DNA of 63,997 nucleotides, the filler included, from Malassezia furfur (taxonomy: Eukaryota), in the NCBI GenBank assembly GCA_052055015.1. It is 13 parts of 13 records of this genome, joined end to end, with 100 filler letters (N's around TTAATTAATTAA, not from the genome) between each part and the next. Parts side by side here need not be neighbours in the genome. Positions count along the whole stretch, not along the records: positions 1 to 5,079 come from JBQJIT010000630.1; positions 5,180 to 10,250 come from JBQJIT010000631.1; positions 10,351 to 15,393 come from JBQJIT010000633.1; positions 15,494 to 20,524 come from JBQJIT010000634.1; positions 20,625 to 25,606 come from JBQJIT010000635.1; positions 25,707 to 30,659 come from JBQJIT010000636.1; positions 30,760 to 35,711 come from JBQJIT010000637.1; positions 35,812 to 40,742 come from JBQJIT010000638.1; 5 more parts are not named here. One strand, given 5' to 3'. The position numbers were made by a program, and so were the translations under genes. Numbering within the stretch: the stretch's first letter is position 1; each line of letters starts with the position of its first letter. Below are positions 78-60,786 of this stretch, one piece after another. Below the pieces are notes generated by a model, which was not told the DNA's origin, searched no databases, and worked only from the letters and a program-made list of their open reading frames with translations.

Positions 78-2343
78 ATGGATCCCACGAATGCAGTACG
101 GCATCCGACGCCCGAGAAAGTCGCGGACGATGCCGCATCTGACGCGGACGCTGCGGACGACGTGTCGCTGACGCGTGTCGCGGCGCAGGTGCGGCGTCGG
201 CAGCGCATCGTCGCGGCGCTGAGCCGCTTCGCGCCGGTCCTGCGGTACGTCGTTGTTGCGCTCACCCAGCGCTGCGCTCGTCGGTGCGGCACTGATCTGG
301 CTCGTGCTCCTTGCGGTGCCCGGCCCGCCGTTTTCGCGCGGCGTGTATGTGGACGAAAACGCGCTGCAGCCCGGGCAGGTGAAGCGGGCATGGGACTGGG
401 ACGACGTGCACTACGCGGACCGCGCCTCGGACGCACTCGAGGCGTTTGCACGCGCCAACGACACGGCGGGGCGCATCGCGTACCTGTGCACGGAGCTGGA
501 GCGCCTCGGCCTCGAAACGCATACCCAGAACTACACCTTCCACGTCCCGCATGGCGCGCCGATCCGCGGCACCAACGTGTATGCGCGCATGCGTGCGCCG
601 CGCATCGACGGGCGCGAGGCGACCGTGCTCGCCGCGAGCTGGCTGAGCCGCTGGAAGGACCCCCGCGCAAACGGCACGGGGCTGCCCTACACCGCGCCCG
701 GCTCCGTGCGGGCGGTCAACGTGCGCGGCGTTGCGATCACACTGGCGCTCGCGCGCCGCCTGTCGATGTCGGCGTACTGGAGCAAGGACCTGTTCGTGGT
801 GCTCAGCGACGGCTTACTGGACGGGATGCAGGCGTGGGCGACGACGTACTTTGCCAAGCCGCAGCCGACGCTGGTCGCCGACGAGGTGTTCAGCGGCGGT
901 GCGCAGATCTGGAATGCCGTCGCGCTCGACTATCCCGCCGACTCCTACTCCTCCCTGTCGCTCCTGCACGAAGGACGCGACGCGCAGCTGCCGAACCTCG
1001 ATACCCTGAACTCGGTGACGCACATCCTTCAAGGGCTCTACTTTGAGCCGCGCATGGGCCTGCACGGCGTGACGTACGAAGAAGAGAAGCATGTCGTGCC
1101 GACGCTCGACACGCTCGTCGCCAAGGGCGTGCCGCGTGCGCCGCTCACCTGGCTCGAGCAGCGCGTGCTGACGCGCGGCGCCGTGCACCGCTTCCTGGCC
1201 GGCTGGCGCGCGCTCGCGGCGCAGTGGCGCCTGCAGCTCGCTGGGCATCCCAGCGGCGTGCATGGCGTCCTGCTGCCCTTCCACGTCGACGCGCTCACGC
1301 TGTTTGCCGAGCCGGCGCCCGGCCCGTTGGGCTTCCACGACCTCGGCGGGGTAGTCGAGCTGACACTGCGCGCGTTTTCGAACCTGCACGAGCGGCTGCA
1401 CCACTCGCAGTTCTTCTACCTGCTGCTCTCGCCGCGGCTGTTTGTGCCGATCGGGACGTACCTCGTGGTGCCGCTGCTCCTCGGCGCGGCCCTGACGCTC
1501 ACGGGCCTTGCGCTGTGGAACGCGCTCGGGGCCCGCCGCGACCGGCTGCGCACCAAGCTCGTAGAGCGCGTCGTGCCTGCGTCGAGCGCGCCGCATCTCG
1601 AGCGCCCCGTGTACGCCGAGCTGGAGCGCGACCTGGCCGGCGTGTCTGCCGAGCTGCGCGGCATTGCGCTCCGCGCTTACTGCGAGATGGCGCGCCCGGT
1701 GTGGTCGGCGCTTGCGTGCATTGCCGTAGCGCATGCGGGGGGCCTGCTGTGCCTCGCAATCGCGGTGCATGCGCCCATCGACTGTGCCGAGCGCGGGTGG
1801 GGCGCGTGCCATGCGCTCCTGTGGCTCGGTGCGGTGCCGGCGGTGCTGCCGTGGGCGATGGCCGGCGCGGCGCGCGCCCTGCGCCTCGACCTCGTGCAGC
1901 TCGGCGCGTGTGTGCAGGCGTTTGCGCTGCTGCACGCGGGCATGGTGGTGAGCGTGCTGAGCACGCTCAACTTTGCGCAGGCCACGACCATGGCGCTGCT
2001 CCTGACGCTTGCGCTGTACCCCCTTGTGCCGCCGTGGGGCATGCAGGCTGCTGCGCCGATCACGCGGGGCTGGGCCGCGCGTGTGCGCTACCTTGTGGGC
2101 TATGTGCGGCTCGTGCTCGTGACGCCCGTGGCGCTCGTGGCGCTCGTGGCGTTGGCGGTGTCGTGGGCGCCGGCGTCGCACACGCTGCAGTACGTGCTTG
2201 CGCAGCTGCCGGCCACGATCGACCTGGCCGCGTGGGACTACCATGTGCTGCGCGCCTCGGCGCTGCACATAGTGCTACTGGGCTACCTGCCCGTCGTCGT
2301 CGAGGGCGCCGCGGCGTGCTGTCTGTATGTACTGGCCGTGTAG
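78..2343 (+). CDS. GAA1: GPI transamidase subunit Gaa1; exons 78-244 and 270-2343
   Basis: Motifs YVDENALQPGQV, GTNVYARMRAPRIDGREA, YWSKDL, QLPNLD and NLHERLHHSQFFYLL, plus C-terminal TM helices. A 25-nt intron at 245-269 (GTACGT...CTCACCCAG) joins ORF 78 to ORF 253 in frame. Confidence 0.93.
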
Positions 2344-2371
2344 GAAGGTAGGCCCTTGGCTTCTTCTCCAC

Positions 2372-3448
2372 ATGATCCGCCCCCCGTGCCGGTGGGCTGC
2401 GCCGGTGTCGCGCGCCGTGCGCCGTGCGCCGTGCGTGCCGCGTGCGCTGCACACGTCGGTCGCGCGCGCAAGCTACTCGTCGATCGACCCCGCGGACATT
2501 GCCCACTTCAGCCGGCTCTCGGAGCACTGGTGGGACGAGGACGGGGAATTTAAGCCGCTGCACCGCATGAACCGCGTGCGCATCGAGTTTATGCGCGAGA
2601 AGCTCGACGAGATGCGCGGCTGGGACGCAGCGATGGCCGACGTGCTGGGCAAGGAGGTGCGGCCATCGCCGCCGCCCGCGTCGTTCCTGTCCGGCCTGTC
2701 GATGCTCGACATCGGCTCGGGCGGCGGCATCCTCTCGGAGAGCGCCGCGCGCCTCGGCGCGTGCGTCACGGGCGTGGACGCCTCGGCAGAGAACGTCAAC
2801 GTGGCCACCGTGCACACGCAGCAGGACCCCGGCCTGCGCCTGCGCGCGGACCCCGGCGCGTTTGAGCCGCATTCCCTGGCGTATGTCGCAGCGACCGCCG
2901 AGGCGCTGCGCGACGAGGGCAAGCAGTACGACATTGTGACCGCGATGGAGGTCGTCGAGCACGTCCTGGACCCCGCCGAGTTCCTGCGGTGCGTCGCGGA
3001 CCTCGTGCGCCCGGGCGGGATGGTGTTTATGTCGACCATGTCGCGTACGGCACTGTCCTACTTCCTGACCATCTTCCTCGCCGAGGACCTGCTGCGTGTC
3101 GTGAGCCGCGGCACGCACCGGCATGCGCAGTACATCAACCCCGAGGAGCTCGTGGCCTTCTTCCGCGACGAGCTCCGTTGGTTCCAGCCCGAGGCCGCGC
3201 AGCCGACCGGGCGCGCGACGCTGCCCGACGGTGCGCCCGTCGCGCCGCTGCCGCTGCGGCTGCAGTACGAGACGCGCGGGACCATGTATCTGCCGCTGCT
3301 CGAAAAGTGGGTGCTTGCGCGCCCCTCGGTCGCGGACGCAGCGGCGACCGCACAGCCCGTGACGTCGTGGGTGCCGCCGCTGCTCGGCGGCACGCAACGG
3401 TGGACGGAGCAGTGCAACTACTTCTTCTACGCACGTAAGCCTATGTAG
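2372..3448 (+). CDS. COQ3: Ubiquinone biosynthesis O-methyltransferase, mitochondrial
   Basis: HFSRLSEHWWDEDGEFKPLHRMN, SAM motif LDIGSGGG, MEVVEHV, GTH. Arg-rich presequence from ATG 2372. Confidence 0.95.
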   Translation: MIRPPCRWAAPVSRAVRRAPCVPRALHTSVARASYSSIDPADIAHFSRLSEHWWDEDGEFKPLHRMNRVRIEFMREKLDEMRGWDAAMADVLGKEVRPSPPPASFLSGLSMLDIGSGGGILSESAARLGACVTGVDASAENVNVATVHTQQDPGLRLRADPGAFEPHSLAYVAATAEALRDEGKQYDIVTAMEVVEHVLDPAEFLRCVADLVRPGGMVFMSTMSRTALSYFLTIFLAEDLLRVVSRGTHRHAQYINPEELVAFFRDELRWFQPEAAQPTGRATLPDGAPVAPLPLRLQYETRGTMYLPLLEKWVLARPSVADAAATAQPVTSWVPPLLGGTQRWTEQCNYFFYARKPM

Positions 3449-4925
3449 CCAGCAGCAGCGTATTCCGGAACCAGCGCGTGTCGCGCAGGTCGCAGTCGTC
3501 GCGCACGATGCGCGTCGTCTGCTGCGCGACGGTGTGCAGCAGCTCAGAGAGCAGCGCAAGCGGCAGCTGCTCGGTGGCCGCGAGCTGCAGCGTGGTCTGC
3601 GGCGTAGCAAGGTGCTCGTACACGCGCGCCTCGAATTCCGCGTCTGCAAAGCGGGGGGTATACAGGATCGTGCGGCCCGAGCGCAGCACGCGCAGCGTGA
3701 TCGGCGGCTCGGTGACCTCGGGCAGGTACGCCACGGCCTGGCGCAGCACCTTGGGCGAGACGAGCGCTGGATTAGGACATCACGTACCGGTGCCGCGCGC
3801 GCGGTTCCACAGGCCCCACACCTCGTCGAGCGCCAGCATGCCGCGGTCGAGCATGCCGTTCGGCGCCGTCAGCAGGCTCGCCAGCTCGCGTGCCAGCTCG
3901 ACATGGTACTCGCGCTCGCTCTTGACCATTTCGGGGGTCACGGCGGGCGCCGCGAGGCCGAGCTGCACGAGCGCCGACTGGATCATCGAGCCAGTTTCGT
4001 CGTGCGACTGCTGTCCGTCGCGTGCCAAGACACGCTCGCGGCGCTCGAGCTGCGTACGCAGCGTCGCAGCAAGGTCGACCATCTGCTTGGCCTGCTTCAT
4101 CAGCGCCTCGAGGTCCTGGAACGCATCGGGTGCGGGCGCCACAGGCGCCGTGTCCTGGATCAGCACGCCGTCGATGCCTGCGGCCGGCCGCCGGCGCCGC
4201 GGCTCGGCAAGCCACGGCTTGGACTGCAGCGTAGACCGCAGCTGTGCATAGAACGCCTTGTCGCCGCCTTTGCGGAAACTGAGCTTGACATAGGGCGGAG
4301 CGGTGGGCGCGGGAGCAGGTGTAGGCGCGGGCGTGGGCGCGGGCGCTTCTACTGGCGCGGGCGCCGCAGCTGGCGCGAGCGGTGCCTCACACATCTCGCA
4401 GTGCGTCATGGCCGGGTGGTTGAGAAAGGTGCAGCGTGGACATCCTTTTTCGGGGCCGGCAGACGCAGGTGGGGCACTCACTGGTAGAGGAGCCGCCGCA
4501 TGGCCACTTGGCGCCGCCACGGCCGCATCTGCGGGCCGTGCGACACCACATAGTGCACACACGTCGAGGGACGTTGCGTTGGTATTCTGGAAGCCGCACA
4601 CGGCACACGTCCACGGCCCGGCGGGTGCCGCGGCCTGCTCACGCAGCATCACGGTAATCTTGGGGCTGCTCTTCAAGAAGCCCGCATAGTGCTCCGTCTG
4701 CCGGATCGTATCGAGGCGCACAAAGCACGACTGCTCGGCGCGCGCCGCGTCGACGTACGCGAGGCGGTGCGTGGTGAGGACGGCGGTGCCAGCCGCGCGC
4801 AGCGGCGCCTTCTCCTGCCGGTCGTACATGCCGACGCCGCCCTGCTCGGCGAGGAGCGCCTCACCCGGCGCGAGCGCCGCGCGCACGTCCGCGGCGCGCA
4901 TCTCCCAGCGCTCCCAGCGCTCCAT
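3441..4925 (-). CDS. VPS36: ESCRT-II subunit Vps36; exons 4925-3788 and 3766-3441
   Basis: Split GLUE domain (LTTHRL, GFLKSSPKI, YVKLSFRKGG) with two NZF fingers (WTCAVCGFQN, CPRCTFLNHP). A 21-nt intron at 3767-3787 restores WNRARGTALVSP. Confidence 0.93.
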
Positions 4926-5179: not shown

Positions 5180-6144
5180 AGAGGAAGAGGAGCAAGCCGT
5201 ATGGATTGGATCGGTGTCGAGTGCCTTTTGGCTATACCCCTTGATTGCCGGCAGCTACCTCATCGCCTCGACCTGGACCATGGGCGTCGCCGAGGCGGCC
5301 CATTCGGCCCAGAATCTGCACGTCCCCGACATGCGCGAGCGGCTGCAGCACACGTCATGGGTAGAGCATGTGAGCCGTGCGGTGCTCATCGCCAATTACT
5401 CGCTCGTGTGCTTGGCGCTGCAGTACGTCCCCTGGATCGGACCGGCTCTGGCGTTCCTGGTGATGTCCCTGGTCGACGGCTACTTTTGTTTCGAGCAGGT
5501 CTGGGCCGTACGGGGCTGGACGTTTGAAAAGGTGCGTTGCCTTGCTACTCACACAGCGCCTGCGGTTCAGCGAGTCGCACTGGTCGTACCTGATCGGCTT
5601 TGGCGTTCCGTCCACGGCCGTGTCCTTCTTCCACCCGAGTGGACTGCTCAACCTGATGTTGTTCATGCTCGTGTTCCCTGTGTGCACGGTGCTGGCCCTG
5701 CTCGCCGAGCCAATGCCCACGAGCTCCTCACTGGGGTCGCAGGCGACGATGCTGCCGACCGGCCCGCAGAACGACCGCTCCAAGGAACTGTCGACGCTGA
5801 TGCCCGCGCGCATCCCCTTGTTTTGGCCCACCGTGCGCGTGCGCCGTATGCTGCTGACCCTGGTGCCGCGCGTCGCCCCGCTCGGTGCAGGGGCCCGCGC
5901 AGCACCCAAAAAGTACGACCGGCCGGGTATGTCTCCCCGCATGCCGCGGCAGTCTGCGGCGCAGTTTGTTGGCGGCGCATGGACAGGCTCGCCTGTAGGC
6001 TCGCCCGCGCCGTCGGTGCCGTCAACGCCGGCTCCGAGTGCCTCGGCAGGCTCCGCGGCGCCGTGGCTCGCGTCGTCGGTCAGCATCCCCATGGCGATGG
6101 ACCAAGGGTCGCTGGGGGCGCGCAAGTTCCACAAGACGCAGTAG
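5180..6144 (+). CDS. EI24/PIG8-family membrane protein, 5' partial
   Basis: Hydrophobic helices and GYFCFEQVW...WTFEK|RLRFSESHWSYLIGFGVP, joined by a 25-nt intron at 5532-5556. Confidence 0.75.
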
Positions 6145-8753: not shown

Positions 8754-9021
8754 ATGAGCGATCCAAACGAGCAGTTTTCCATTCAGCCGCACCCGGCCAA
8801 GAGTAGGTGCAGCGGCTTACCCAGGCAACAACCCGGTCTCGGACCCAAACGTGGGCGGTGACCGCCAGATGGGCACGGGTGTGCCGTCCGGCCCCGGCAT
8901 CCAAATCCCCGATAAGGATACGGCGAGCCAGCTCGAACAGCCGGCGTGTACGTATGCGCGCGCCCCGCTGACGCCAGCCAAGGAGGAGCTCGCCAAGCGC
9001 ACGGCGGAGCTGAACAAGTAG
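8754..9021 (+). CDS. Small 71-aa protein; exons 8754-8802, 8825-8947 and 8978-9021
   Basis: Removing introns 8803-8824 and 8948-8977 gives MSDPNEQFSIQPHPAKSNNPVSDPNVGGDRQMGTGVPSGPGIQIPDKDTASQLEQPASKEELAKRTAELNK*. Not in the ORF track. Confidence 0.75.
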
Positions 9022-9072: not shown

Positions 9073-10250
9073 TCACGCAACGGTGCGGCGCGCACGCAGG
9101 CGCCGCACGGCGAACCACGCCGCGAGGCCTGTGAGGCTCACGAGGCCGAGTGCCCGGAGCACGAGCGTGACTACGAGGGCACGGCGGACCGAGGAGCTGG
9201 ATGTGAGAAACAAAACGTACTAGAAGGCGGCAAGCGCCAGGCCCGACCAGTGTGCGCGGCGCTCCATCTCGGTGCCGATGCTCCGCTGCCACCCGCGCAG
9301 GATCACGCGGTAGCGCCAGCCAAACACCCAGATCCAAAAGTTGACATCGGGGTAGCTAAAGTGGGGGAACACCTCCACCACGCTGGGCGTTTTGCGCGTG
9401 AGCGCCAGCTCGGTCGGCGCGCCGAGCAGGTAGCTCGACGGCGTGTTGGACAGGATGCGCTCGAGCATGCCCTTATCCTGCTCCGCCGACCTAGAGGGCT
9501 GCATCTGGTAGGTGCCCATGTGCGTGAGGAAATCGAGGGTCATGCCGAGCGTCAGGCCCCAGAGCTGCAGGTGCGGCGTGCACTGCTCGAGGTAGTCCTT
9601 TTCGGACTCGGTGAGAATCCGCGTGGTGTCGCCGTTGCCATCGCTGAGCGTCTCGCCCGGCTCCTCCTCCTTTTCGGGGAGCATTGCGTGCGGCACAAGC
9701 GCCTCAGCATCGCTGTCGCTCTCGGCGACGGCGTCCGGCCGATTCGGCAGCTGCACGGAGCGGAACGACATCTTGCCGATCAGCACGGTGAGCAGCACGC
9801 GCAGCACCGAGTTGCGCGGCGCATGCCGCGCAAAGTCGATGTGGATCGTGCCCCAGTTCGGCGTGGGTGTAAAGAGCCGCTGGAGCGGCACCCACTGGAG
9901 CGACTCGACTTCGCTGGCCTGTAAATGCGGGCGCTCCGAGAACGGCGAGAGTTGCAGGAACACTGTGTGAGCAGCACACGTACCATACGGGCTCAGGATC
10001 ATCAGGAGGCGCTTGCCGAGGCTGCTTGTGATCTCGCGGTCCTCGAGATGGCCTACCTGGAGGAACTCCTTCTCGGCGAGGTCGATGCCGACCTCCTCCC
10101 AGGTCTCGCGCATCGCCGTGTACAGCCCACTCTCGTCTTCTTCATCGCGGCGCCCGCCGGGAAACGCAACATGCGACGACCACTGGTCGTTCTCGCGCAC
10201 GGCGCGCTTGATGAACAGCAGCTCCGCCGTCCCGCGCTGGACCCACGGCA
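9073..10250 (-). CDS. Nudix hydrolase (CoA-pyrophosphatase-like) with C-terminal TM anchor, 5' partial
   Basis: HVAFPGG...AMRETWEEVGIDL Nudix box and LWGLTL. Introns at 9963-9983 (21 nt) and 9197-9220 (24 nt). Confidence 0.85.
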
Positions 10251-12783: not shown

Positions 12784-14615
12784 ATGTTGGCCTACGTGTC
12801 GCTGGCGCTGAGCCTGTATGCGCTGGTGACCTATCTGCTGCGCGGTGCAGGAGCGCCGCCCGCATTCGATGCGGACGCGGTGCCGATCTACCTGCGCGCG
12901 CCCTCGCAGGGGTATGCGCCCGCGTTCTCGACGCACGGCGCGGAAGGCGCCGTGACGTGCGAGGTCGACGTGTGCTCGTACGTGGGCGCTTATCTGCTGT
13001 CGAAAGGTGGCTCGGCGAGCGATGCGGCGACGGGCGCATCGGCGTGCGTCGGTGTGATCCACCCGTACCACTCGGGCATCGGCGGTGGCGGATTTGCGCT
13101 GGTCAAGACGAACCGGAGCGAGCCGGTGATGGTCGACTACCGCGAGACGGCGCCGGAGGGCGCCCACCGCACCATGTTCCTGAACACGTCGAAGGAAGAG
13201 ATGTACCATGGGTACGTCACTCGCTAACCCAGGGGCCTCGCGGTTACCGTGCCGGGCGAGGTGCGGGGGTGGCAGGCGATGCATGCGCTGTACGGCCGTT
13301 TGCCGTGGGCGGAGCTCCTTGAGCCTGCGATTGAGATCGCGCGCCGCGGCTTCCGCATCCCGCCGCAGCTCAAGTATGCAATGGACACGCTGGGCGACAA
13401 GCTGTGCGAGGCGCCGCGCCTCGGCGACATCTACTGCCCCGGCGGCGTGATGAAGGCGCTGGGCGACACGGTGCGTCTCCCTGCGCTGGCCGATACGCTT
13501 GAGCAGATTGCGGTGCAGGGCCCCGACGCGTTCTACAGCGGCCCGATTGCTGAGCGCACGGTCGCGACCGTGCGCGAGCGCGGCGGGATCATGGACCTGG
13601 CGGACCTGCAGCGGTTCCGTGTGCTGTTCCGCTCCGCGCAGTCGATCGACTACCGCGGACGCTACCGCATCTGGTCGACGACCGCGCCGAGCTCCGGCGC
13701 AGTGTTGCTGTCGGCGCTGCGCACGCTCGAGAACTACCCCGACCGCCCGTACGACCGGCACAACGTCCTGCAAACGCACCGCGCGATCGAGGCGGCGAAG
13801 TTTGCGTACGGCGAGCGGACGCGGTACGGCGACCCCGCGTACCTCTCGAACGTGTCCGCGTACGAGCACGATGCGCTCTCCGAGGAAGGCGGGCGCACGC
13901 GCTTTACCAAGATCGACGATACGCGCACCTTCCCGGCGTCCTACTACAATCCGTCGTACGAGGACTCGGGCGAGGACCACGGCACGTCGCACCTCAACGC
14001 CGTGGACGCGACGGGGATGGCGGTGAGCATCACGACGACCGTCAACCTGTGGTGGGGCAGCCTGGTGCAGACGCCCGACGGCATCCTGCTGAACGACGAC
14101 ATGGACGACTTTAGCACGCCCGGCACGCCGAACAAGTTTGGGTACAAGCCGTCGCGCGCGAACTACATTGAGCCACGCAAGCGCCCGCTGTCGAGCATGT
14201 CGCCGCTGCTCATCGAGTCGCTCCCGAGCGGCGAGACGCAGCTCATTGCCGGCTCTGCGGGCGGCTCGCGGATCATCACGGCGAACCTGCAGATGGCGTA
14301 CACCTACCTGTCGCACTACGGGCGCGTCGACATGCAAGAGGTGATCCGCCATCCCCGCTGGCACCACCAGCTGATGCCCGCCGAGACGTACTTTGAGTAC
14401 GCCATCGCCGAGCTGCCCGACGTGCACGGCTACGACAATGTGTATGTGCAGTGGACTGACCCAGGACGGTGGCTGGCCTGGCGGCCCTGGGGCACACCCC
14501 AGCGTGGATCATGCCCGGCTCGTCGGCCGCGCAGGCGATCCAGCGCCTCGCCAACGGCTCGTGGGCCACGGCAAGCGAGTCGCGGCAGCCCGAGGCGCGC
14601 GGCGGCGCCGTGTAG
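12784..14615 (+). CDS. Gamma-glutamyltranspeptidase (glutathione hydrolase)
   Basis: SGIGGGGF, DYRETAP, VPGE, autocleavage site G/TSHL, LNDDMDDFS, KRPLSSMSP, GSAGGSRI. Introns at 13212-13232 (21 nt) and 14442-14464 (23 nt). Confidence 0.94.
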
Positions 14616-20679: not shown

Positions 20680-21541
20680 GCCGGGCTCCTCTGCCGCCGG
20701 CACCGTGGCCAGCGCCGCAGCAAGCGCGCGCACCACGACGATCACGAGTGCGAGCACATTGCCGGTGACCAGGCCACCCACCGCGCCGTACACGCACGGC
20801 AGGGGCCACGTCTGCCAGACGCGCCCCCAGTCCAGTGCCACGCCCGCGGCGCCGACGAGCGTGCCGAGCGCCGCGCACACGGCGGGCACGAGCACAAGCA
20901 CCTCGCGCGGCGTCGCGAGGCTCGGCGCCGCGAGCACACGCGTCCACATGGGCGACGGCGGTGTACCGAGGATGTGCACCACCGGAAACAGCACGATCAG
21001 CGCAAAGTAGGCGGCCAGCACCGCTGTGCCCGTGTAGGAGCCGTTCACCGGCGCACCGAGCAGCACCAGCACCGCGAGTGCCGCGGCCCAGAGCAGCGGG
21101 AATGCAAATGTCGTCATCACGAGACGCTGTGTGAGTTGCCCTGCACCCCATGGCCCCACCTACCTCGAGCTGCTGGCCCACCGAGTGCGCCTGCTTTTGC
21201 GCGTTCTTGCGGTTCGCGCCGCCCTCGTACGCCTCCGACACGCTGTGCCAGCTTGCCATGCGCGCACAGAACCACGCCTGCGTGATGTACATGCCCTGCA
21301 GCGAGAGCGCCGCCTCGCGCAGGAGCGCCGCGCCCGTCGCGGGCGCGTCGCGTCCGACGCCCGGACGCAGGATGCGCGAGACGTGCGCAAGCACGCGCAT
21401 CACGAGCGAGTCGGCCGTGTCTGGCCACGCGCGTGCGAAGTCGACCAGCGTAAGAAGAAGAAGGAGCGGCTGGAGCACAAGCATCACAAATGCGAGTTGC
21501 ACATCGTGCCGCACCGGCCACGCTGCCGCGCCCTGCGCCAT
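20625..21541 (-). CDS. GPI11: GPI biosynthesis protein PIG-F/Gpi11, 3' end unresolved
   Basis: LVLLGAP and ALDWGRVWQTWPLPC. A 37-nt intron at 21127-21163 joins the two frames. Confidence 0.85.
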
Positions 21542-33900: not shown

Positions 33901-34073
33901 CTTTTGCGGGGCTGCGTGAGCTGTGGAGCACGTACGGCGCGGGCCTTGCGCGCGGGGCTGGGTGGCAGGGCGCCCATACTCGCCGCGCGCTTCCTGCGTG
34001 CCTTGGCGGGGCTCGTGTTCTCCTTGTTCGGCGACGACGCGCCGGGCATCGACGGCCGCAGGCGCGCGTGCAT
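30932..34073 (-). CDS. SPC105: Kinetochore scaffold Spc105/Spc7/KNL1, with an apparent frameshift near 31780
   Basis: PP1-docking KSAIR and RRVTFS, about seven MELT-like motifs (MDLT, MEMT, MDMT, MQFT), Spc7 domain (FLQVVGLKF, YYGWR). Coiled coil and RWD-like tail lie in a second frame. Confidence 0.9.
32641..32730 (-). repeat. 27-bp coding tandem repeat (STPRSAPAV, about 3 copies) in SPC105
   Basis: GGCGTCGACACAGCGGGCGCACTACGT-like units. A 15-bp KASPT x3 repeat also occurs near 33652-33696. Confidence 0.8.
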
Positions 34074-36635: not shown

Positions 36636-37751
36636 TGGGGTTCGTACGGGTCCCCTGAGTATGCTTGTCGAACCACTCCGAGGCTAACTGCGCCGAGTCC
36701 AACCCCATGCTAAAGTAGGACGTATTCACGCGCGCTTGAAACATGGACGTGTGCGCGGTGATCTCATCGATCGTGGACTGCGTCAGCAACACACGTACTG
36801 GAAAGTCAAGCGGCGAAAAGTGAACCGCATACGGCTGGTGCTCGTCCGGTAGCAGGATAAAGGTGCGCTGCGTCGGGTCCAGCGGCCCCGTCGGCTGGGG
36901 CCCCAGCGACCCCGGGCGTGGGCGCAGCCGTGTATAGAAACAGTGGAAGGGGATCTGGTGTGTGCGGCAGTCCTCGAGCCGCTGCGACATGGCATCGACC
37001 TCCCACAGGTTGCGCACAAATGCCAGATGTTCCGTCACCCACCGGTACGACTCGTCCACGGGATTGGTTTTGTTGATCACCGCCGACGCCACCGCCGTAC
37101 CGATCGCTGCAGCCGCCGCCGTTCCAACACCAGTCCATGCCGCGTTGGACAGACGCGATGAAGTTGTAGGCACCCCATTCGGGCCCTGGGCGGAGCGCGA
37201 AGCAAACTGCGCCGCGAGACCGCCACCAATGGGACTCAGCACCGCACCGAGCTTCAGGGCCGAATTCGCATAACCATGGTAGGTCGAGAACTGGTTCTTA
37301 AATACATGTGGGTGTACTTTGTCAGGTACTGCACCTACCGCCCAGATATGGCGAGTCGTACGCAAGCACGCCAATGACGCGTGGCCACATCTCCTTCCTC
37401 TGCGTCGTACTCCGCTGCAGCTGGAGCGCCGCGTCCATCGATACGAGCCCGCCCATCGAATGTCCACACAGCAAGACGCAAGTACGCCCATGCTTTTGCT
37501 CGTAGGTACTCACCTCGGCCGTGAGCCACGCAATCAGGCTGTCGACCGCGGCCTCGAGCGAACCACGTGTCTCGTACGTGGGGTAGACGCGGGAGGCGAT
37601 CGCCGCCCGTGGGTGCGTCTGCAGCAGGAGATGCGCAAGCCGGTCGGGGAACTGTTCAAACGTCGACTCGGCACTACCTTTGAATCTGTGTCAAACGTCT
37701 TCTATCCTACCCGTGCACGAACACCACCAAAAGCGCGCCCGCGTCCGTCAT
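36616..37751 (-). CDS. Alpha/beta-hydrolase, DUF676/lipase-like
   Basis: Spliced product MTDAGALLVVFVHGFKG...YPTYETRG...GHSMGG...YDSPYLGVHP...DEITAHTSMF. Introns at 37686-37710, 37317-37338 and 36778-36798. Confidence 0.85.
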
Positions 37752-39667: not shown

Positions 39668-40317
39668 ATGTCAATGGCGCAGTCAGAAGACGCCGATGTA
39701 CGACCCCGAGTAACGACTCATAGTACAGAATGCGCCACTGTTGGTTCCGTGCATTTTATCGCAACCAGAGTTTCGGTACGTATTCGTTTTAAGACTTGGC
39801 GCTAATATTAGACATCCGGATGATCTTGGGTCTGGGCGGATAGCTCAGTCGCAGGAATATGGAATCTACGCATGGTACAGTGGTGTCCGAAGCTCACGTT
39901 TTCCACAGGCCCACCACTTCGCTGCGCGAACTAGCAAATTTGATCTACGTGGCTAATCCAGCGTCCTCGCATCCCCACTCACCCCACGACTTTCGGGTAT
40001 TACTTTTCGATCTCGATGCAGGCACGTATCGGGCATATCCGCCGATTAGGGGCGTCACGCGCGTGACCCCTCGTCAAGTTGAGGCATTACTCGGACCTGC
40101 GCAGGAACCATTGGATGCTCGCGCAACTCTCCGCAGAACCGATCATGCAGATGCGGGTGACAGAAAAGACCCTGCGTCGCAAACGCTGATGGACTTGAAC
40201 TTCTCTCCGGGGGACATAATTGAGTGTGTCGTTCACGCGCCACGCACCGGGCGCGACCGAGAAATAAAGGGAAACCCTCACCGACGAGCTGACCGTCCGC
40301 ATCGACAGTTCATGTAG
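39668..40317 (+). CDS. SAP18: Sin3-associated polypeptide SAP18; four exons
   Basis: Removing introns 39698-39728, 39776-39811 and 39875-39908 gives ...APLLVPC...EYGIYAWPTTSLRELANLI...TLMDLNFSPGDIIECVV, matching the SAP18 pattern. Confidence 0.78.
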
Positions 40318-45857: not shown

Positions 45858-47460
45858 GCCGGCGCGTCCGCCGCCGGCGCCTCGGCCGGCGCGCTCGGCA
45901 CCTCGCCGACCTGCGCATTCACGTACGGCCCGAGCGCACGCTCGATCGCGAGGCGGCGCTCCTCCGGGAACGCCTCGTCGCGCGCCTGGTCCGCACGCAG
46001 CTGCTTCAGCTTGCTCGGCGGCACACGCAGCACCGTCGCGGTGGTGTCGTTCACCGGGTCGTACTCGTTGCGCGCGACCTGCAGGCCGAGGCGCGTGCCG
46101 AGCTCGGCGAGCAGCGCCTGGTCCGCGTCGCTGAGCGGCGACGCAAACGCCGCTTCCGTCTCAGCCGTGTCGGGGTGCGTCTCGAAGGCGAGCGCAAAGC
46201 GCTGCAGCTGCGCAATCCACGCGCGCTGCTGCGGCGTGACGACGACGGTGCGCGCCGCGGCCTTCTTGGGCGCACGCTTCTTGCGCCGCGCCGCCGGCTT
46301 GGCGCGCGTCAGCTCCGGGTGGTCCTTGAGGAAGTTGGCGCGCTCCAGCGCAAACAGCTCGTTGATCACGAGCTGCAGCCGCTCCGGGCGCAGCGTGCCG
46401 TGGTCGTTGAGGTAGCCGCCCGCGGCAGGGAGCACCTTTTCGTAGATGCGGAAGAGCAGCTCGATCGCGCCCTCGTTGATGTGCAGGCCGGGCAGGTGCG
46501 GCAAGAAGTCGTTGCCGACAAACAGGTGGAGCAGGATGTAGTCGTCGATGATACGCTCCAGATCGAAGCCGAACGGCAGCTTGTCGCGCAGGCCCGCGAA
46601 CTCGAGCTCGAGGTACTCGCGCAGGAGCGAGATGTGCAGCAGGTAAAAGGTCTGCGTCTCGAGCGACGCCGTCTTTTTGCCGCGCTGTGGGCCGAAGATG
46701 ACCTCTTCACGCAGCAGCGCAAAGTGCGGGTCGTGGCTCAGCAGGCCGAGCATGATCAGGTCCGCGTCCAGGCCGTACAGGCAGTGGCGCGTGTTGGGGT
46801 TGTAGTCGGGCTGCGCCTTGATGGTGCGAATGAACTCCATGATCTTGTGCTCGCCCTCGCCGACGGTGTCGTGCCCCGACAGGATGACCTGGACGTTGCG
46901 CCAGTTCGCGTCCTCGGACACCTTCTTGGCGATAAAGTACTCGAGCTGCAGCGAGAGCTTCTGCATAAAGATGGTGCCCGGCGTGATGCAGTTCGAGTCG
47001 AACGGCGCCGACTCCGGGATCGCCTCGCCGCGCCGCCGCGCCTTTTCGAGGTTGTCTTTCGCCTCTTGTGCGGTGCGGAAGCGCCGGCTGCGCTGCTGGT
47101 TCATCTTGGCGCGCGGCGCCACGCCGTCGATCGCCAGGAAGAAGACCTTCTGCGGGCGGATCTTGGAAAAGAGGTGCTCGATATACGCAAAGATGCCCAG
47201 GAATATGTCCTCCTCGGAGATGCGGAACGTCGCCTCGTCGTCGCGCGGGTGCGAGCTGTGGGTTAGCGAGCGGGCGCGGCGCACCAATTGTGGATGATCC
47301 CGTTCATGTCTGCGGGTGAGCGCGCGTGGCGTACCAAGATATAGGTTATCGAACTCGGGTATCCTGTTCTCCTCCACGAGCTGCATGATGACTGCGTCAG
47401 CGGCACACACGCACGCGGATACCGCTCCGAGAGCCATTTGAAGTATTTCGGCACCCCCAT
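45858..47460 (-). CDS. XRN1: 5'-3' exoribonuclease Xrn1, 3' partial
   Basis: Spliced MGVPKYFKWLSERYPLIMQL...FDNLYLDMNGIIHNCSHP, then IDGVAPRAKMNQQRSRRF, GEGEHKI, YGLDADLIML and VGNDFLPHLP. Introns at 47392-47414, 47310-47334 and 47256-47284. Confidence 0.96.
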
Positions 47461-47512: not shown

Positions 47513-47577
47513 CTCCACCGGACGTGCGCACGGCGCGGCGGAGCGCGGCGGCGCGGCCCGAGCGCAACCCCACCGCT

Positions 47578-50075
47578 ATGCCGCCGCGTGGGGAGCCGGA
47601 GTTGGAGCGCGACTATGTCAACTGGGACGATGTCGAGGCGTTCGCGCGTGCGATGGAGACCGAGGGCGAGACGGGCACTCTGCTGCCACAACCCGACGCG
47701 GACGTGCGTGACCAGCGCGCGATGCGCATTTCTGCCGCGTCCGACTTTGCGCCGATCCACGAGAAGGTTGCCAAGGGCGAGGGCGACCGCAACGTGAAGC
47801 TGCGCTCCGTGGACCGCGGAATCCCCGAGGGGATCATGTACTATGCGCTGCGGTGGCCCATGCTGCTGCTCGTGTGCTGGCTCATCTTTTCCGAGTTCCT
47901 GCTGTACGTCTTTATCCGGCAGGTGGTCAACATGATCGAGGTGACCATCTCGTGGCGCGGGCACGCGGGCACGCTGCGCAAGCGCATGCGCTCTGCACAC
48001 ACCTATGGCGAGTGGAAGCGCGCGGCGCTCGAGCTCGATCGCTACCGCGACCACAACGCGTGGAAGGCCAAGGACAGCAGCGCCTACTACGACTGGCGCC
48101 TGATCCAGCGCGTGGTCGCCGCGCTGAAAGGTGTGTGCTGCTTGCTGACCCAGTGACGCGCGAGCAGGGCGACACGCACGCGCTCATGGGCGTGCTCAAT
48201 CTGTGCCTCAAGAACAACTTTGCCGGGATCGAAAACTTCTCGCTGTACAGCCAGTCGTTCCACGGCACCAAGCACCTCATCGAGCAGTACTACCAGGAGG
48301 TGGAGCGCGCGCTCTACTACCTCGAGAAGTCGTCGCTCGACGTGCAGGTCAAGCGCACGTTTTACCGCGTCGCCGCGAAGAACTTTGGCAAAACGGCGCT
48401 GTGCCTGAGCGGCGGCGCGAGCTTTGCCTACTACCACTTTGGCGTGGTCAAGGCGCTGCTCGACACCAACCTGCTGCCGACGATCGTGAGCGGCACGTCC
48501 GCGGGCGGCCTCATCGCGGCGCTCGTGTGCACGCGCACGAACGACGAGCTCAAGGAGCTGCTCGTGCCCGAGCTGGCGGCCCGCATCACGGGGTGCGACG
48601 AGCCGATGCACGTGTGGCTGTGGCGCATGTACAAGACGGGCGCGCGGTTCGATGCGGTGCGCTGGGCGTCGAAGTCGATGTTCTTTACGCGCGGCTCAAT
48701 GACCTTCCGCGAGGCGTACGAGCGCACCGGCAAGACGCTCAACATCAGCGTGGTGCCGTTCGACCAGCACTCGCCCGCGCAGCTGCTCAACCACATCACC
48801 GCGCCCGACTGCCTGATCTGGAGTGCGGTGATTGCGTCGGCGGCGGTGCCTGGCATCCTGAACCCCGTGTTCCTGATGCAGAAGCTGCCCGACGGCTCGC
48901 TTCACCCCTGGAGCTGGGGCTACAAGTTCCGCGACGGCAGCCTGCGCGTCGACATCCCGCTGCAGCAGCTGCACTCGATGTTCAACGTGACCTATCCGAT
49001 TGTGTCGCAGGTGAATCCGCACGTGCACCTCTTCCACTACGGCAACAAGGGCGCGCCCGGGCGCCCCACGGCGTTCCGCAGCGGGCGCGGGTGGCGCGGC
49101 GGCTTTTTGCTGTCGGCGGCCGAACACATTGTGCGTGTCGATGCTAACGCAGCTCAAGCTGAACCTCACGACCAACTTTAGTAGGTGGAGGCACTCACCC
49201 AGAAATCCTGCGCGACCTCAACCTGATGCCGCACTTTCTCGGGCAGGACTGGTCGTCGGTCTTTTTGCAGCCCTTCCACGGGGCGGCGACGATCTGGCCC
49301 AAGACGCGCGTGCTCGACTGGCCGCGCATCCTGACGGACCCCACGCCGCAGGACATGCGCCGCCTGCTGTTTGTCGGGCAAAACGTCACCTTCCCCAAAC
49401 TCGTACGTGCGCCGACGCTCACGCACGCAGCACATGATCAGCAACCGCATCCACCTCGAGCGCGCCATCGCGCGCGGGCGCGAGTACGTACGCACCGAGG
49501 CGGTCACACACGCCGACGACGACCTGCGCGCGCGCATCGGCACCCTGTCGCGTCCCGGCTCGTCGCTGTCGCTGCACAGCGAGCGCAGCGAGCGCAGCGA
49601 GCCGAGCGACGCCGAGAACGCAGACGCGCGCGACCGAACGACGCCGCGGCGGCGCACGCAGCGCAGGCGGCCGCAGGACCTGCGCAAGGGCCTCGTGGGC
49701 GGCGACAGCAGCGTGCTCGAGACCTACTCGCCCGAGTGGTTCCAGTTCCTGCACGCGGCCGACTCGCCCATGGCCGGCACGCCGTACGAGTCGGGTGCCG
49801 AGGACGATGTGCCACGCGGCACGTCGATCCGCCGCGCACTCACGATGCCCGCCGAGCCGCATGCGTGGCGGCACCGTGGCTCGATGCTTGCCGACGGCAC
49901 GCTCACTTCGCTGGCGCATGCCGAGGATTCGTGGGACGCCGAGCCGGGGCACGCCGAGCCGGAGCGCGAGCCACTTGAGCAGGACGATGGTGCACAGTAC
50001 GACGTGGACCGTGAGCACAATGCACGCGGCGACGCCGTCGACGTGGACAGGAGCAGCTCGCCCAGCGATCTGTAG
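47578..50075 (+). CDS. Patatin-domain triacylglycerol lipase (Tgl3/4/5-like)
   Basis: LSGGASFAYYHFG, GTSAG, DGS, VSQVNPH. Introns at 48131-48153, 49131-49152, 49181-49202 and 49403-49430. Confidence 0.93.
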
Positions 50076-55884: not shown

Positions 55885-56056
55885 ACGAGGCGTCCGCGAC
55901 GCTCTCGCCGGGGCACGACCTGCTGATGCCCCTGTCGCCAGCCCAGCTGCCGTAGCGCTTATCGAGATACCGATAGGGAGTGATCGGGCGTGCCCGATTG
56001 GATCAGCCTTGGCGCCTTTGCTTATCTTGGCACGGTGCGGCGTGTGACTGTCCTTC

Positions 56057-56584
56057 ATGCCATTCCTCGAGCATTTCCAGCGCGGGAAGAAGACGGAGCG
56101 GGAGGACACGCCGGAGCGCGGCCGCACCATGACTGGGACGGGCCGCGGCGGCGCCGGAAACGTGCGTGAAATCGGCTTACCCCAGATCCATTACGCAAGC
56201 AAGAACGCCACGAACGACGAGGACGACGCGCCCAAGGAGACGCCGGCTATCATGCACGTCGGCCGCGGTGGCGTCGGCAACGTGCGCTCCCCGTCGCGTG
56301 ACCCCATGGACCGGCGCCGTGAGGAGCGCGACGAGCGCGAGCTCGACGAGATGCAGGACGCCGAGCTTCGGCAGCACGTACACGCGACGGGGCGTGGCGG
56401 CCGCGGCAACGTGCCCATCGCCAACGATGAGGAGCGCGGACGCAACACCGCACCCTCGGGACCCGCCCGCGTCGCAGGACTCGTTCGGTCCTTGTCGCGC
56501 TCGCGCTCGCGCGAGCCGTCCGACGCAAGGCGCCGCGAAAGCTCCACGACGCGCCGTTCCAACCTGAACCAGGTCGCAGAGTAG
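56057..56584 (+). CDS. GRGGxGN-repeat protein (DUF3602/Par32-like)
   Basis: TGRGGAGNV, VGRGGVGNV and TGRGGRGNV. Confidence 0.75.
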   Translation: MPFLEHFQRGKKTEREDTPERGRTMTGTGRGGAGNVREIGLPQIHYASKNATNDEDDAPKETPAIMHVGRGGVGNVRSPSRDPMDRRREERDERELDEMQDAELRQHVHATGRGGRGNVPIANDEERGRNTAPSGPARVAGLVRSLSRSRSREPSDARRRESSTTRRSNLNQVAE

Positions 56585-56629
56585 GGGCACAAACATATGG
56601 GATTGGGCTCGGTTATTGCAAGGGAATAG

Positions 56630-58875
56630 TTAATCGGTAGGTTCATCTAGGAAGAGCACATCACGCGAGGGGCTGGGGCGGCCCTGCGGATCGTGGGGTA
56701 GCACCAGCGCGACCCGCTGCGGCGCCGCACGCCGCCCGTTCGCCCGGAATTTCTTGTAGTTGCGCACCGCCGGCGCGCCGGGGGGCGCCGCACGCACAAG
56801 CGGCGCGTACCGCACCTGCACAAACGACGTGCGCTGCAGCGACGTGTCCATCGACGCACTCGGTGGGGTCGCCGAGCGTGCACGTGAATCCGGTGCGCCC
56901 GGGGGGGTCGCCGAGCGTGGGGGGGGTATAGGAGACGGCGAACGATCCGCCCCGGCCGCGCCATCTGTGGCCGGCGGGGGGGTGTGCGCCGCCGGTGTGG
57001 GGCGCTCGTGCCCGGACTGCGACGGCGTAGGCACCGACGCAGCGCGCGGCGGCTCCTGCGTCAGACCAAACAGCTCGTCCAGGAGCAGCGAGCGCCGCGC
57101 CTGCCGCGTTCCGGCGAGGCGCTGCAGCGCAGTGGGCGGCGGCGTGCTCGATACAGGCGCACGCCCTGACTCGGCATGGTCCTGGAAAGGACCGGTCGCA
57201 GGCGGCAGCGCACGCACCTCGTCCGCATGCCACGGCGTCTCGGCGCTAGACACGCCAGGTGCCGTGCTCTGGAATGTCTCGCGCTCAGGTAGGGGTATAG
57301 GATCGGGCGACGCCGCACGATGCGCCGCGCATGGCGAGTCGGCCGGCGAGTCGGGCGCCCCAGTGGACGACCCACGCCGCGGTGCGGCCGGCGGCTGGAA
57401 GGCACGCAGGGCCCCATGCTCTGGCTCGGCGCCAGCGCCTTCGAGGGTCGGATCGGTAATGTCCTCCAGGCTCGGGCTGTCCGACAATGGCATCTCCTCT
57501 GTGAGGTCCATCGTCACATCGTGGGGCCGCTGCTCCGGCGAGTACAGCGAAATGTCGCCCGCGTAGACGGCCGGGCCGGCAGGCTGCGTCGGCGGAAACA
57601 CGTCCAGGTCCTCCTCGTGCCGCGCTTCGTCGGCGGGTGCACTGGGCGGGGAGGCGCGCGCTTGGGTCCCAGAAAGGAGCAGCGTCGCATCGTCCTCGGG
57701 ATCATGCGCGCCCTGTCCTGCGACGTACAGCTCCGCACACGACTGTGCCTCGAGGATGCACTCGGCGACGGCCGTCACGCCCTGCGGCATCACACGGATC
57801 CGGGAGCTGCGTAAATCGGCCACGTACCGCTGTGCCGCCTCGGCCACAGTCGCGGCCCAGGGCGCCGCCGCGTCGCCGCACAGCACGTATGTCTCCTGCA
57901 CAGGCACGGGGGTCGACTGGGCGGCCCAGTGAGCGTCGGCCGCCGCCTGTGCTTCGCGCAGCATCTGCTCGGCATCACGCACCGTGTGCAGCGGATGCCT
58001 TCGGAGGTCGTGCACCACGACGTGGCCCTCGGCCGCAACGGCCAGTTGCTCGAAGTCCGTCTGCGTTAGTCGGGGACCTACATAGCGCCGCTCGAGGCCA
58101 GGGAGCACAAACACCAGCGTCGTGCCTCGGAAGAGCGTCGCGCGCTTCGGCGACGGCGCGAGCTGCGACGTGGACAGCGGCGTATCGAGCGCAATACGCG
58201 CGTCCAGCGGCGGAACGTACAGTCGGCTGTCCGGCCACGCACTTTCCGCCGGACACGCGATGGCGGCCTCGACGTACGCAGCCGTCACAATGGGGATCCC
58301 GCGGACGAGTGCAAGCAGCTGGGTGCGGTTGGGACGGACGTGCGCGACGCACAGGTGCGTGCAGCGCACGTCCAGCGACTCGCGCACCACCACCAGGTGC
58401 ACGCCGCTCGCGCACGCCCGGCGGCGGACGTCCTCGGCTTCGAGCGACGGCACCCGGACAATGCCGACCGTGCATGGCACCCAATGTAGCTCGAGGGACA
58501 CGTCGTTCACGAGGCGGACGCGCGCGCGGTCGGTGAGCGGAATAGGCGTCTCGACGCGGATGCGCTGCTCCACGCGGTTTTTTCCACGGTACGTCTCGAC
58601 CAGAGAGCCCGTTTTGCTGCGCGCGTGCATGATCCAGCACACTTGGGGGATATACGAGGGATCGCCGAGCTGCTCGGCCGTCATCGACGCGACCTGCAGC
58701 GTGCCTGCCATACGGCTCACCCGGAGCATCGGTATACATAGGTCCACGGCGCCCTCTTTGCGGCCCACCGTGTACTCGCGGCCCGTATGGAGGACGCGTG
58801 AAGTTGGCGGCGCTGCGCGTGAGGGCAGGCAGACGTACCATCCTCGCCATCGAACCACGAGTGCACGAACCACAT
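56630..58875 (-). CDS. NBS1: Nibrin/Nbs1 (FHA-BRCT, MRN complex)
   Basis: Spliced start MWFVHSWFDGEDAPP, FHA (YTVGRK, VSR, SKTGS), BRCT (CTHL...ALVRGIPIVT) and C-terminal NYKKFR Mre11-binding-like motif. Introns at 58813-58838, 58061-58081 and probably 57807-57827. Confidence 0.8.
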
Positions 58876-59297: not shown

Positions 59298-59305
59298 GTC
59301 ACGTG
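59298..59305. promoter_or_regulatory. GTCACGTG E-box upstream of GGA
   Basis: 31 bp before ATG 59337. Confidence 0.5.
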
Positions 59306-59336
59306 CCCGAGAGGACGCGGCTTGTGCTCAGCGGTG

Positions 59337-60786
59337 ATGTACAACTATCGGCCGCGGGACGGGCGGCCACAGCCGTACTTGAGCCGGTCTTCGGGCATGC
59401 GCACGTCCGAGTGGGGCGCGCGCAGCCTCGACTTGGATGTGCGCCTGACGCCGATCCAGTCGTATGTCGGTACGTGTGTCTACTGACGAAGAACGCTGCT
59501 GTGAATCCGGTTCGGAGACGCTCAACTTGCCGCTTGCGCTCGAGCTCGCCGACTATGTGAACACAAAACGCGCAAACAGTGCGCGCGAAGCCGTATTTGA
59601 GACGCTTGGAAAAATCAACTCGCGCGTGCCGCACGTCGGCCTGCTCGGCCTCGATGTACGTAGTCCGTTCGGCTGACCCAGCTCCTCGACATTCTCGTGA
59701 AGAACTGCGGGTACCCCGTGCACCTCCAGCTCGGCACGAAAGAGTTTCTGAACGGGCTCGTGCGCCGCTTCCCGGAGCGCCCGCCGATGCACCCGAGCCC
59801 TGTGATGATCAGAATTCTCGAGATGATCCACGAATGGCGGCAGACGATCTGTGTCACGAGCAAGCACAAGGAAGACCTCGTCCACATCCGCGACATGCAC
59901 CGGCTTCTCATGTACAAAGGCTACCGGTTTCCCCGGGTGGATGCGCGCAACGCGTCTGTGCTCAACAACGATACGGCGCTGCAGTCGCCCGAGGAGCTCG
60001 AAGAGGAGAACCGCATTGCCCAAGGCGCCAAGCTCCAGGAGCTGATCCGGCGCGGCACGCCGCGGGACCTGCAGCAGGCTCAGGAGCTGATGAAGATCAT
60101 GTCGGGCGCCGAGCCCGAGGCCAACGCGCAGACCAAGCATGTGATCAAGGAGCTCGACAAGGTGCAAGCGCGTGCGAAGCTGCTCAACGACATGCTCGAC
60201 CAGGCGAAGCCCAACGAGAAGTTTGTCTCGGGCGACGCCTATGACCAAGTCGCGTCGAACCTGCGCAGTGTCCAGCCGCGACTGCAAAAGTGGATCAACC
60301 AGGCCGAGGAGGAGGAATCCGACCAGCTCCAGCGGTTCCTCGAGGTGAACGACCTGATCAACCAGTCCCTCACGCGCTACGATGCGCTCTTGGGCGGTGA
60401 CACGACCAAGGCGCAAAAGTCCAAGGCCAAGATTGATCTGATCTCGTTTGACGACGAGGAAGAAAGCGCCAGCGCACCGCCGCCCGCGCAGGCGTCGTCC
60501 TCCAACCTGGGCGCGCTCGACGAGCTGGCTTCGCTGTCGCTCGGCGGCGCTGATGCGCCACATGTCTCGCGCTCCGTCGCGGCGCAGGCGGCGAGTGCGG
60601 CACCGACGCCGGCGCCGCCACCGCAGCTGCCGCCGCCGCACGACGCGCCCGCGCCAAAGCCTGCGCTGTCGATCGACGACATCATCCGGCGTGCGAACGA
60701 GGCGAACGAGGCGCAGCAGCGGCTCGAGGCCGAGGAAGCCGCGCGTGCCGCGCAGGCCGCGGCGGACGCCGAGGCGCGCGCGGCGA
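59337..60786 (+). CDS. GGA-type VHS-GAT adaptor, 3' partial
   Basis: LALELADYVN, LLDILVKNCGYPVHLQ, RRFPERPP, HIRDMHRLLMYKGY and AKLQELIRRGTPRDL. Introns at 59470-59491 and 59656-59681. Confidence 0.92.

Follow-up and report, generated by a model that had tools for sequence, protein, structure and literature searches.

Ultra-short U2-type introns in Malassezia furfur and a predicted minimum distance from donor to branch adenosine

Short introns are already known from the fungal genus Malassezia. The curated annotation of M. sympodialis contains 5350 introns with a mean length of 30 bp, 99% of them supported by RNA-seq (Zhu et al. 2017, PMC5389616), and a fungal intron-evolution survey used an older annotation of the same species with 3244 introns against the 5350 curated. 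For M. restricta, annotation took 20 and 15 as the smallest intron sizes allowed (PMC6473144), and annotations of M. globosa give intron means of 76–79. Outside the genus, introns of ~22–27 nt are described in trichomonads and myxozoans, and Stentor coeruleus has introns of 15–16 nt with the branch adenosine (A) at +10 or +11, for which a steric clash has already been proposed (PMC9505925). Here we describe the introns of Malassezia furfur in a window of 63,997 nt, made up of 13 contigs of ~5 kb joined by N-linkers, and extend the analysis to further parts of the same assembly (1856 contigs, 13,683,795 bases). From their motifs, these are very probably ordinary major-spliceosome (U2-type) introns that have shrunk to their signals, with two independent spacings: 15 nt or more precede the branch A, and mostly 5 nt follow it. 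An initial annotation of the window had treated introns of about 20 nt as chiefly a matter of ciliates and nucleomorphs; given the M. sympodialis mean and the trichomonad and myxozoan introns, the surprise that it implied is smaller.

Introns were called with a gene-finding hidden Markov model (HMM) that had a flat intron-length prior of 10–200 nt and was trained on 600 kb from contigs 1–20, with GT or GC and AG ends imposed and donor positions +3 to +6 learned. The model made 34 intron calls in the window; four were dropped and one donor was moved, which left 30 introns of 21–37 nt (median 23.5), namely six of 21 nt, five of 22, four each of 23, 24 and 25, two each of 26 and 28, and one each of 29, 30 and 37. 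Much of the window has a second gene copy, 85–91% identical, at another place in the assembly, as in the doubled, probably hybrid, M. furfur assemblies described previously (PMC4634964), and these copies served as a natural comparison. The introns are listed below, with the branch A, where given, as its position from the donor and from the intron end; one further candidate is included.

245..269, plus strand: 25-nt intron, GAA1-like gene; A at +20/-6; frameshifting; kept in second copy
3767..3787, minus strand: 21-nt intron, VPS36; A at +16/-6; in-frame stop; second copy 21 nt, middle changed
5532..5556, plus strand: 25-nt intron, gene without Pfam name; frameshifting; second copy 25 nt
8803..8824, plus strand: 22-nt intron, small gene; frameshifting; second copy 23 nt
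8948..8977, plus strand: 30-nt intron, stop-free multiple of three; basis, motif and second copy
9197..9220, minus strand: 24-nt intron; A at +17/-8; retention would bring in a stop; second copy 24 nt
9963..9983, minus strand: 21-nt intron, stop-free multiple of three; A at +16/-6; motif; second copy keeps signals, middle changed
13212..13232, plus strand: 21-nt intron, gamma-glutamyltranspeptidase (GGT); A at +16/-6; in-frame stop; homologs align across; second copy 21 nt
14442..14464, plus strand: 23-nt second intron, GGT; frameshifting; second copy 25 nt
21127..21163, minus strand: 37-nt intron, PIG-F gene; frameshifting; second copy 32 nt
30096..30123, plus strand: 28-nt intron, RPC5 gene; frameshifting; second copy 28 nt
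33912..33935, minus strand: 24-nt intron, Spc7 gene, stop-free multiple of three; posterior 0.76; basis, motif and second copy
34226..34248, plus strand: 23-nt intron, dihydrouridine synthase gene; frameshifting; second copy 22 nt
34548..34571, plus strand: 24-nt intron, dihydrouridine synthase gene; A at +17/-8; in-frame stop; second copy 25 nt
36778..36798, minus strand: 21-nt intron, stop-free multiple of three; second copy keeps the outer GTACGT and has lost G+5 of the nested 17-nt donor
37317..37338, minus strand: 22-nt intron ending AAG; frameshifting; second copy 22 nt ending CAG
37686..37710, minus strand: 25-nt intron; posterior 0.40; frameshifting; kept in second copy
39776..39811, plus strand: 36-nt candidate, not within predicted coding sequence; second copy retains the motif
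47256..47284, minus strand: 29-nt intron 3, XRN1; 93 of 102 homologs align across
47310..47334, minus strand: 25-nt intron 2, XRN1; 89 of 102 homologs align across
47392..47414, minus strand: 23-nt intron 1, XRN1; 84 of 102 homologs align across
48131..48153, plus strand: 23-nt intron, patatin-family lipase gene; frameshifting
49131..49152, plus strand: 22-nt intron, patatin-family lipase gene; frameshifting
49181..49202, plus strand: 22-nt intron after 28-nt exon; frameshifting
49403..49430, plus strand: 28-nt intron; A at +19/-10; frameshifting
56162..56185, plus strand: 24-nt intron, DUF3602 gene, stop-free multiple of three; basis, motif; posterior 0.86
57807..57827, minus strand: 21-nt intron, stop-free multiple of three; A at +16/-6; basis, motif; posterior 0.79
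58061..58081, minus strand: 21-nt intron, stop-free multiple of three; A at +16/-6; basis, motif; posterior 1.00
58813..58838, minus strand: 26-nt intron; frameshifting
59470..59491, plus strand: 22-nt intron ending AAG, VHS/GAT-domain gene; frameshifting
59656..59681, plus strand: 26-nt intron, VHS/GAT-domain gene; frameshifting

By reading frame, homology and the two gene copies, the predicted introns of the window are well supported and judged to be real. Within the window, matches to a strict donor-branch-AG motif of 30 nt or less number 23, whereas 60 order-4 Markov simulations gave 0.8 ± 0.7 (maximum 3). Removal of 23 of the 30 is needed to keep the frame or eliminate a stop (19 frameshifting, 4 more with an in-frame stop), while stop-free multiples of three make up 7 of the 30, including four of the six 21-mers. 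Where a second copy could be compared (17 of the 30), both ends and the branch motif were kept in every case and the length differed in 5, with no gap in the flanking 45 nt of any of the 17. The exons of GGT and XRN1 match M. furfur proteins at 100% over 95–97% of the query. With its three introns spliced, the start of XRN1 is spanned at the successive junctions by 84, 89 and 93 of 102 more distant homologs, a few of which may themselves be Malassezia; a gap close to the junction is present in 3, 4 and 11. The same spliced start appears in the independent annotations of other Malassezia. The initial annotation had already noted these three introns, as well as those at 13212–13232 (plus strand) and 3767–3787 (the VPS36 intron, whose minus strand it did not give), and had held that most of its introns were required for frame or stop removal; these points stand. 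Among its 31 introns inferred by hand, 28 lengths were matched; the 36-nt one is probably the candidate at 39776–39811, and those of 31 and 34 nt could not be placed, as only two coordinates had been given. Exons of 57, 25 and 28 nt (47335–47391, 47285–47309 and 49153–49180) sit between ultra-short introns, which places two spliceosome targets within ~75 nt.

Several calls were not retained. Those at 3390–3412 and 31785–31839 show exon-like conservation or a lost donor in the second copy, and open frames continue through them; 22547–22698 and 38156–38353 were left out of the set for low posterior. A 17-nt call at 36778–36794 (posterior 0.6) is nested in the 21-nt intron 36778–36798, and the second copy settles the matter for the outer donor. 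A 10-nt call in locus L137 (posterior 0.6) is likewise nested in a 21-nt alternative of normal geometry, and its rejection is less firm.

The 600 kb of training sequence gave summed posterior counts of 1.0 at 19 nt, 0.0 at 20, 37 at 21, 46 at 22, 46 at 23, 34 at 24, 31 at 25, 22 at 26 and 10 at 27, with a posterior above 0.9 in 283 of 327 calls, a median of 24, a mean of 33 (similar to the 30 of its congener M. sympodialis) and ~0.9 introns per gene. In 110 held-out sequences, 237 of 287 calls passed 0.9, with one intron of 20 nt, 22 of 21 nt, 32 of 22 nt and 42 of 23 nt. The pooled set of 520 introns has a median of 24 and includes 54 of 21 nt, one real intron of 20 nt and none shorter; 405 are at most 30 nt, 461 are up to 40 nt and 59 exceed 40 nt. 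By extrapolation, the introns of M. furfur number in the thousands. The wider histogram has the mode near 21–25 nt and the sharp edge at 21 that the initial annotation described; its median of 24 holds for the pooled set, against 23.5 for the 30 introns of the window, and its 21-nt floor holds as a sharp lower edge but not as an absolute one, given the single 20-nt intron at L148:1951–1970.

The edge was already present in the first training round, when the motif was vague, and it persists when the branch model is disabled (19.8 at 21 and 39.9 at 22, against a total of 5.6 for 10–20 nt). When introns were shortened in silico to 15, 16, 17, 18, 19 and 20 nt, the model recovered 151/160, 195/195, 212/212, 212/218, 220/220 and 220/220 of them, respectively, which argues that the edge is no artefact of the method. 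After removal of all called introns, little new signal was found under 41 nt. Raw motif counts have a small excess at 16, 17, 19 and 20 nt that disappears once the frame is modelled, as expected of nested donors. A 19-nt call at C8:5534–5552 (posterior 1.0) was rejected: it is without a branch motif, and its second copy is without an AG and changes in a manner that reads as coding. That assembly indels or gene-model bias might create both the introns and the edge is suggested by the fragmentation of the assembly and by the false calls of the model. We regard this as very improbable, considering the 23 motif matches where 0.8 are expected, the retention of the signals in both gene copies with indels only inside the introns, the flat prior and the recovery controls, and the agreement of other Malassezia annotations on the spliced XRN1 start.

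The position of the branch element probably accounts for the edge. A CTNAY or TTNAC motif lies near the end in 455 of the 461 pooled introns up to 40 nt, and the branch A, taken as the last such match, is at +16 in 71 of these 455 and before +16 in none. The branch A is at -6 in all 54 21-mers, at -7 or closer in all 75 22-mers and at -8 or closer in all 86 23-mers. As read from these motifs, the floor is on the donor-to-branch distance and not on the length, and the ~16 nt that the initial annotation had supposed between donor and branch A appears to be the actual rule. When the A was moved in silico to +15, +14, +13 and +12, introns were still found in 221, 224, 201 and 218 of 228 cases. A floor on the total length of 21 nt, such as a joint footprint of donor and acceptor factors with the branch position merely following, would fit the observation that 21 nt is the shortest common class (54 of 520), with one shorter intron only. 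It is nonetheless quite improbable, as minimum length tracks the tail, with A at -6 giving 21 nt, -7 giving at least 22, -8 giving 23 and -9 giving 24, and as the tail class is tied to intron length (p = 1.6e-14) and independent of the position of A (p = 0.75). The 20-nt intron also speaks against a total-length floor, as its A is at +16 with a tail of -5.

A floor on donor-to-branch distance allows such a 20-nt intron to exist. The intron, GTACGCTGCGCACTCACCAG, lies in the scavenger decapping gene DcpS (L148:1951–1970), and with it excised the restored stretch is gap-free in the homologs from M. vespertilionis, Exobasidium and Puccinia. In terms of the predicted geometry, 21 nt is shown to be 15 nt, the A and 5 nt, and 20 nt to arise from a tail one base shorter. 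Among 69 intron pairs from the two gene copies, 31 differ in length, 26 of them by non-multiples of three, with none under 21 nt, and six of the seven pairs that include a 21-mer are 21 nt in both copies. Length thus seems to drift freely above the limit and to stop at it. Identity between copies is 0.91 in exons and 0.66 in the linker between donor and branch; it is 0.99–1.0 at donor positions +1, +2 and +5, 1.0 at the branch T and A, and 0.97–1.0 over all of these once the branch C is included. Among the pooled introns up to 40 nt, in-frame stops occur in 67 of 141 multiples of three versus 90 of 320 other lengths, as if stop-free multiples of three were selected against; detection bias could explain part of this.

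The signals themselves are strong. In the 520 introns the most frequent donors are GTACGT (255), GTATGT (84), GTGCGT (48) and GTAGGT (40), and the acceptors are mainly CAG (459) and TAG (44). Donor positions +3 to +6 carry 1.4, 0.6, 2.0 and 1.5 bits and the branch C, T and A 1.9–2.0 bits, with weak preferences at branch element positions -5 and -4. The shortest introns consist of a GTAYGT donor (+1 to +6), a linker of ~4 nt with mixed composition and no conservation, NRCTNAC whose A lies no earlier than +16, in most cases a single base, and YAG. In an intron with A at +16, the U2-paired element occupies +11 to +17 and four bases separate it from the donor. It could therefore be held that no physical limit is involved and that the edge is where signals abut and further deletion would remove signal bases. 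The 6 nt of donor, 7 nt of branch element and 4 nt of tail do fill 17 of 21 nt, and there are the weak preferences at -5 and -4 of the branch element. This explanation is unlikely in our view, as a loss of 4–6 nt from the unconserved linker would leave every signal intact, and still 71 introns have their A at +16 and none at +15.

Three features place these introns in the U2-type class: an extended donor consensus on GT (rarely GC)…AG ends, a branch motif complementary to U2 GUAGUA (455 of 461), and the restoration of conserved protein on excision in XRN1 (three introns), GGT (two) and DcpS (the 20-nt intron). U12-type introns have an RTATCCTT donor and a TCCTTAAC branch, and tRNA- and IRE1-type introns have hairpin ends without GT-AG; the donor and branch counts here are U2-type, and these classes were set aside. 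Nor do the M. furfur introns belong to the Stentor type. The two share a 5-nt tail and canonical U2 and U6 elements, but Stentor introns are of near-fixed length, AU-rich and weak in signals, whereas those of M. furfur have A at +16 or later, lengths from 20 to more than 40 nt, 56% GC and strong signals (PMC9505925). Trichomonas type B introns of 23–28 nt (PMC12316389) and those of Encephalitozoon (PMC2483917) resemble them in having the branch motif fused to the acceptor, though these organisms have only dozens of introns and Malassezia thousands. Myxobolid and dicyemid introns (PMC13644364) are of similar length (median 22–27 bp), are many and go with a canonical U2, but little of their signals is left beyond GTa and AG and some A's, weakly conserved, at a set distance from the donor, in contrast to the hexamer donor and CTNAC branch of M. 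furfur. With 2.0 bits at G+5 and 1.9–2.0 bits at the branch C, T and A, M. furfur falls outside the degenerate-signal class of Paramecium, nucleomorphs, dicyemids and myxozoans, and it departs from the trend reported by Irimia and Roy, in which short-intron lineages richer in introns tend to degenerate signals. Yarrowia lipolytica likewise has its branch motif two bases before the AG and no pyrimidine tract (PMC2483917); its introns are long, whereas those of M. furfur are also compressed on the 5' side and vary more in their tails (-6 in 163 of 284 introns of the 600 kb).

Shrinkage may vary by clade within the genus. A metagenome scan for other Malassezia covered 80 loci, one of which was Malassezia-like. 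In this contig (L158:76–130 and the next intron; 50% GC; 99% to a Malassezia-like XRN1), the introns that correspond in position to the 25- and 29-nt ones measure 55 and 43 nt.

How a limit of this kind might arise can be sketched as follows. Deletions in a compact genome would shorten introns until donor and branch element could no longer be held at once, the donor being read by U1 and then by the U6 ACAGAGA box and the branch element being paired to U2 GUAGUA. Alleles below the donor-to-branch minimum would be purged, and without a pyrimidine tract the AG used would be that of the earliest YAG lying 5 nt or more behind the branch A. Our best guess for the limiting stage is the one at which the U6-donor helix and the U2-branch helix have to be present together. 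For the B complex of humans, the donor-to-branch minimum is ~52 nt, with helices of 17 and 14 nt lying 15 nm apart (Keiper et al. 2019, PMC6692369). There, as predicted for M. furfur, the donor-to-branch distance and not intron length is limiting, but 15 nt cannot span the human arrangement, which could not form unchanged in M. furfur because ~52 nt are needed. We offer only tentatively, and with more doubt than conviction, the idea that the one-nucleotide-sharp 15-nt ruler exists because the spliceosome skips the human/yeast-type B-complex arrangement and assembles by a remodelled route, one that possibly lacks a RED/Smu1 bridge and has a divergent U1 that follows GUACGU at its 5' end. A search for the RED N-terminal family PF07808 gave no match, but no positive control gave a signal, and it is evidence neither way.

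The small nuclear RNA (snRNA) inventory suggested in the initial annotation as a check for truncation yielded U2 and U6 at full length, and no U1. U2 is present in one copy (192/192 model positions, GUAGUA intact) and U6 in two (105/105, ACAGAGA intact). The two U6 copies (L101:1501–1605 and L102) are identical, with a six-base loop, GCAGTA, in the internal stem-loop and a 3' hairpin before the U tract; a five-base loop is usual. The U1 pattern ATAC[AGT]TACCTG occurs in 19 places, none with the canonical T and most of them donors on the other strand. A second U1 pattern occurs in 109 places, 30 of which lie in 29 examined loci, none scoring as U1, and the best-looking candidate proved to be a donor in a coding gene. 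The canonical 11-mer of the U1 5' end, ATACTTACCTG, has no match in this fragmented assembly, while donors are mostly GTACGT. The 5' ends of fungal U1 vary, and the U1 of M. furfur may be divergent, changed to match the donor, or absent from the assembly. METTL16 is linked to the donor +4 base; loss of METTL16 as the cause of the C or T at donor +4 was rejected, given two METTL16 copies, and the gene itself has a 21-nt intron.

A number of points weigh against our interpretation. The recovery controls used introns on which the model had been trained, the pooled 520 count both gene copies and include loci chosen for donor-like patterns, and the model gave false calls with high posteriors (a 19-nt call at 1.0 and two in the window at 0.97). 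The GGT junctions fall in looser regions and are less clean, with a gap within 4 residues in 42 of 101 and 21 of 104 homologs. Branch positions are read from motifs, and a second branch-like match lies before +16 in 26 of the 455 introns, each of which also has one at +16 or later. The Rfam model RF00003 finds no U1 in the genome. Finally, the Stentor branch A at +10 shows that there is no universal bar below 15 nt (PMC9505925). Because Stentor manages such a spacing, the 15-nt minimum would be a property of the M. furfur spliceosome and not of splicing chemistry, and the phrase 'near a steric limit' in the initial annotation is apt for this lineage without being general.

Other features of the window are as follows. 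The linkers, at 5080–5179 and 11 further places, read N44-TTAATTAATTAA-N44; the contigs that they join are unrelated, and genes on either side of a linker are not genomic neighbours. Unlike most of the window, the contigs at 40843–50771 and 55885–60786 have no second gene copy that could be found, and one parental copy may have been lost or collapsed there. A low-GC stretch (56–63%) at 37779–40600, handled poorly by the gene model, holds a 515-codon open frame that ends in an RRM domain, with nothing identified upstream. At 51642–52025, a small intronless gene in an AT-richer island encodes a hydrophobic start and a DPBB_1 (expansin/RlpA-like) domain, and its predicted product is probably secreted. 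An Rfam search of the window returned 0 families. Elsewhere, a 157-nt intron (L114:1504–1660) has a weak match to a C/D-box snoRNA (Afu_335, E 0.62, below threshold), and the rare long introns may in some cases host snoRNAs.

We found no paper on the intron length mode, floor or branch geometry of Malassezia, in a search that left most subscription journals out of reach. The available portions of PMC5389616 report a mean and a cumulative curve (Fig. S8), and their text describes neither a mode or floor nor a branch geometry; those of PMC3560662, PMC8476143 and PMC12506658 hold nothing on a Malassezia length floor or geometry. A survey of introns under 30 nt (PMC13644364) counts ciliates, microsporidia and dicyemids among the exceptions without naming Malassezia in the part consulted. 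What appears to be new is a one-base-sharp donor-to-branch minimum predicted from introns with full signals. In practice, M. furfur genes are miscalled by gene finders whose smallest permitted intron is longer. Public Malassezia models (P0242, P0121, P0009 and P0250) skip or read through introns of DcpS, GGT and XRN1, which are annotation errors; the public GGT model is without residues at both introns, and that of M. furfur DcpS is without 10 residues at the 20-nt intron. How introns of 15–25 nt are spliced when the human spliceosome needs ~52 nt has so far been asked in ciliates, microsporidia, trichomonads and myxozoans. T-DNA and CRISPR tools exist for M. furfur (bioRxiv 10.1101/638429), and together with readable signals and a one-base limit they would turn the question of the minimal loop into a simple reporter series, and the spliceosome into a target for proteomics or cryo-EM. 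Should the remodelled route prove true, M. furfur would be the first such system in a transformable, editable fungus.

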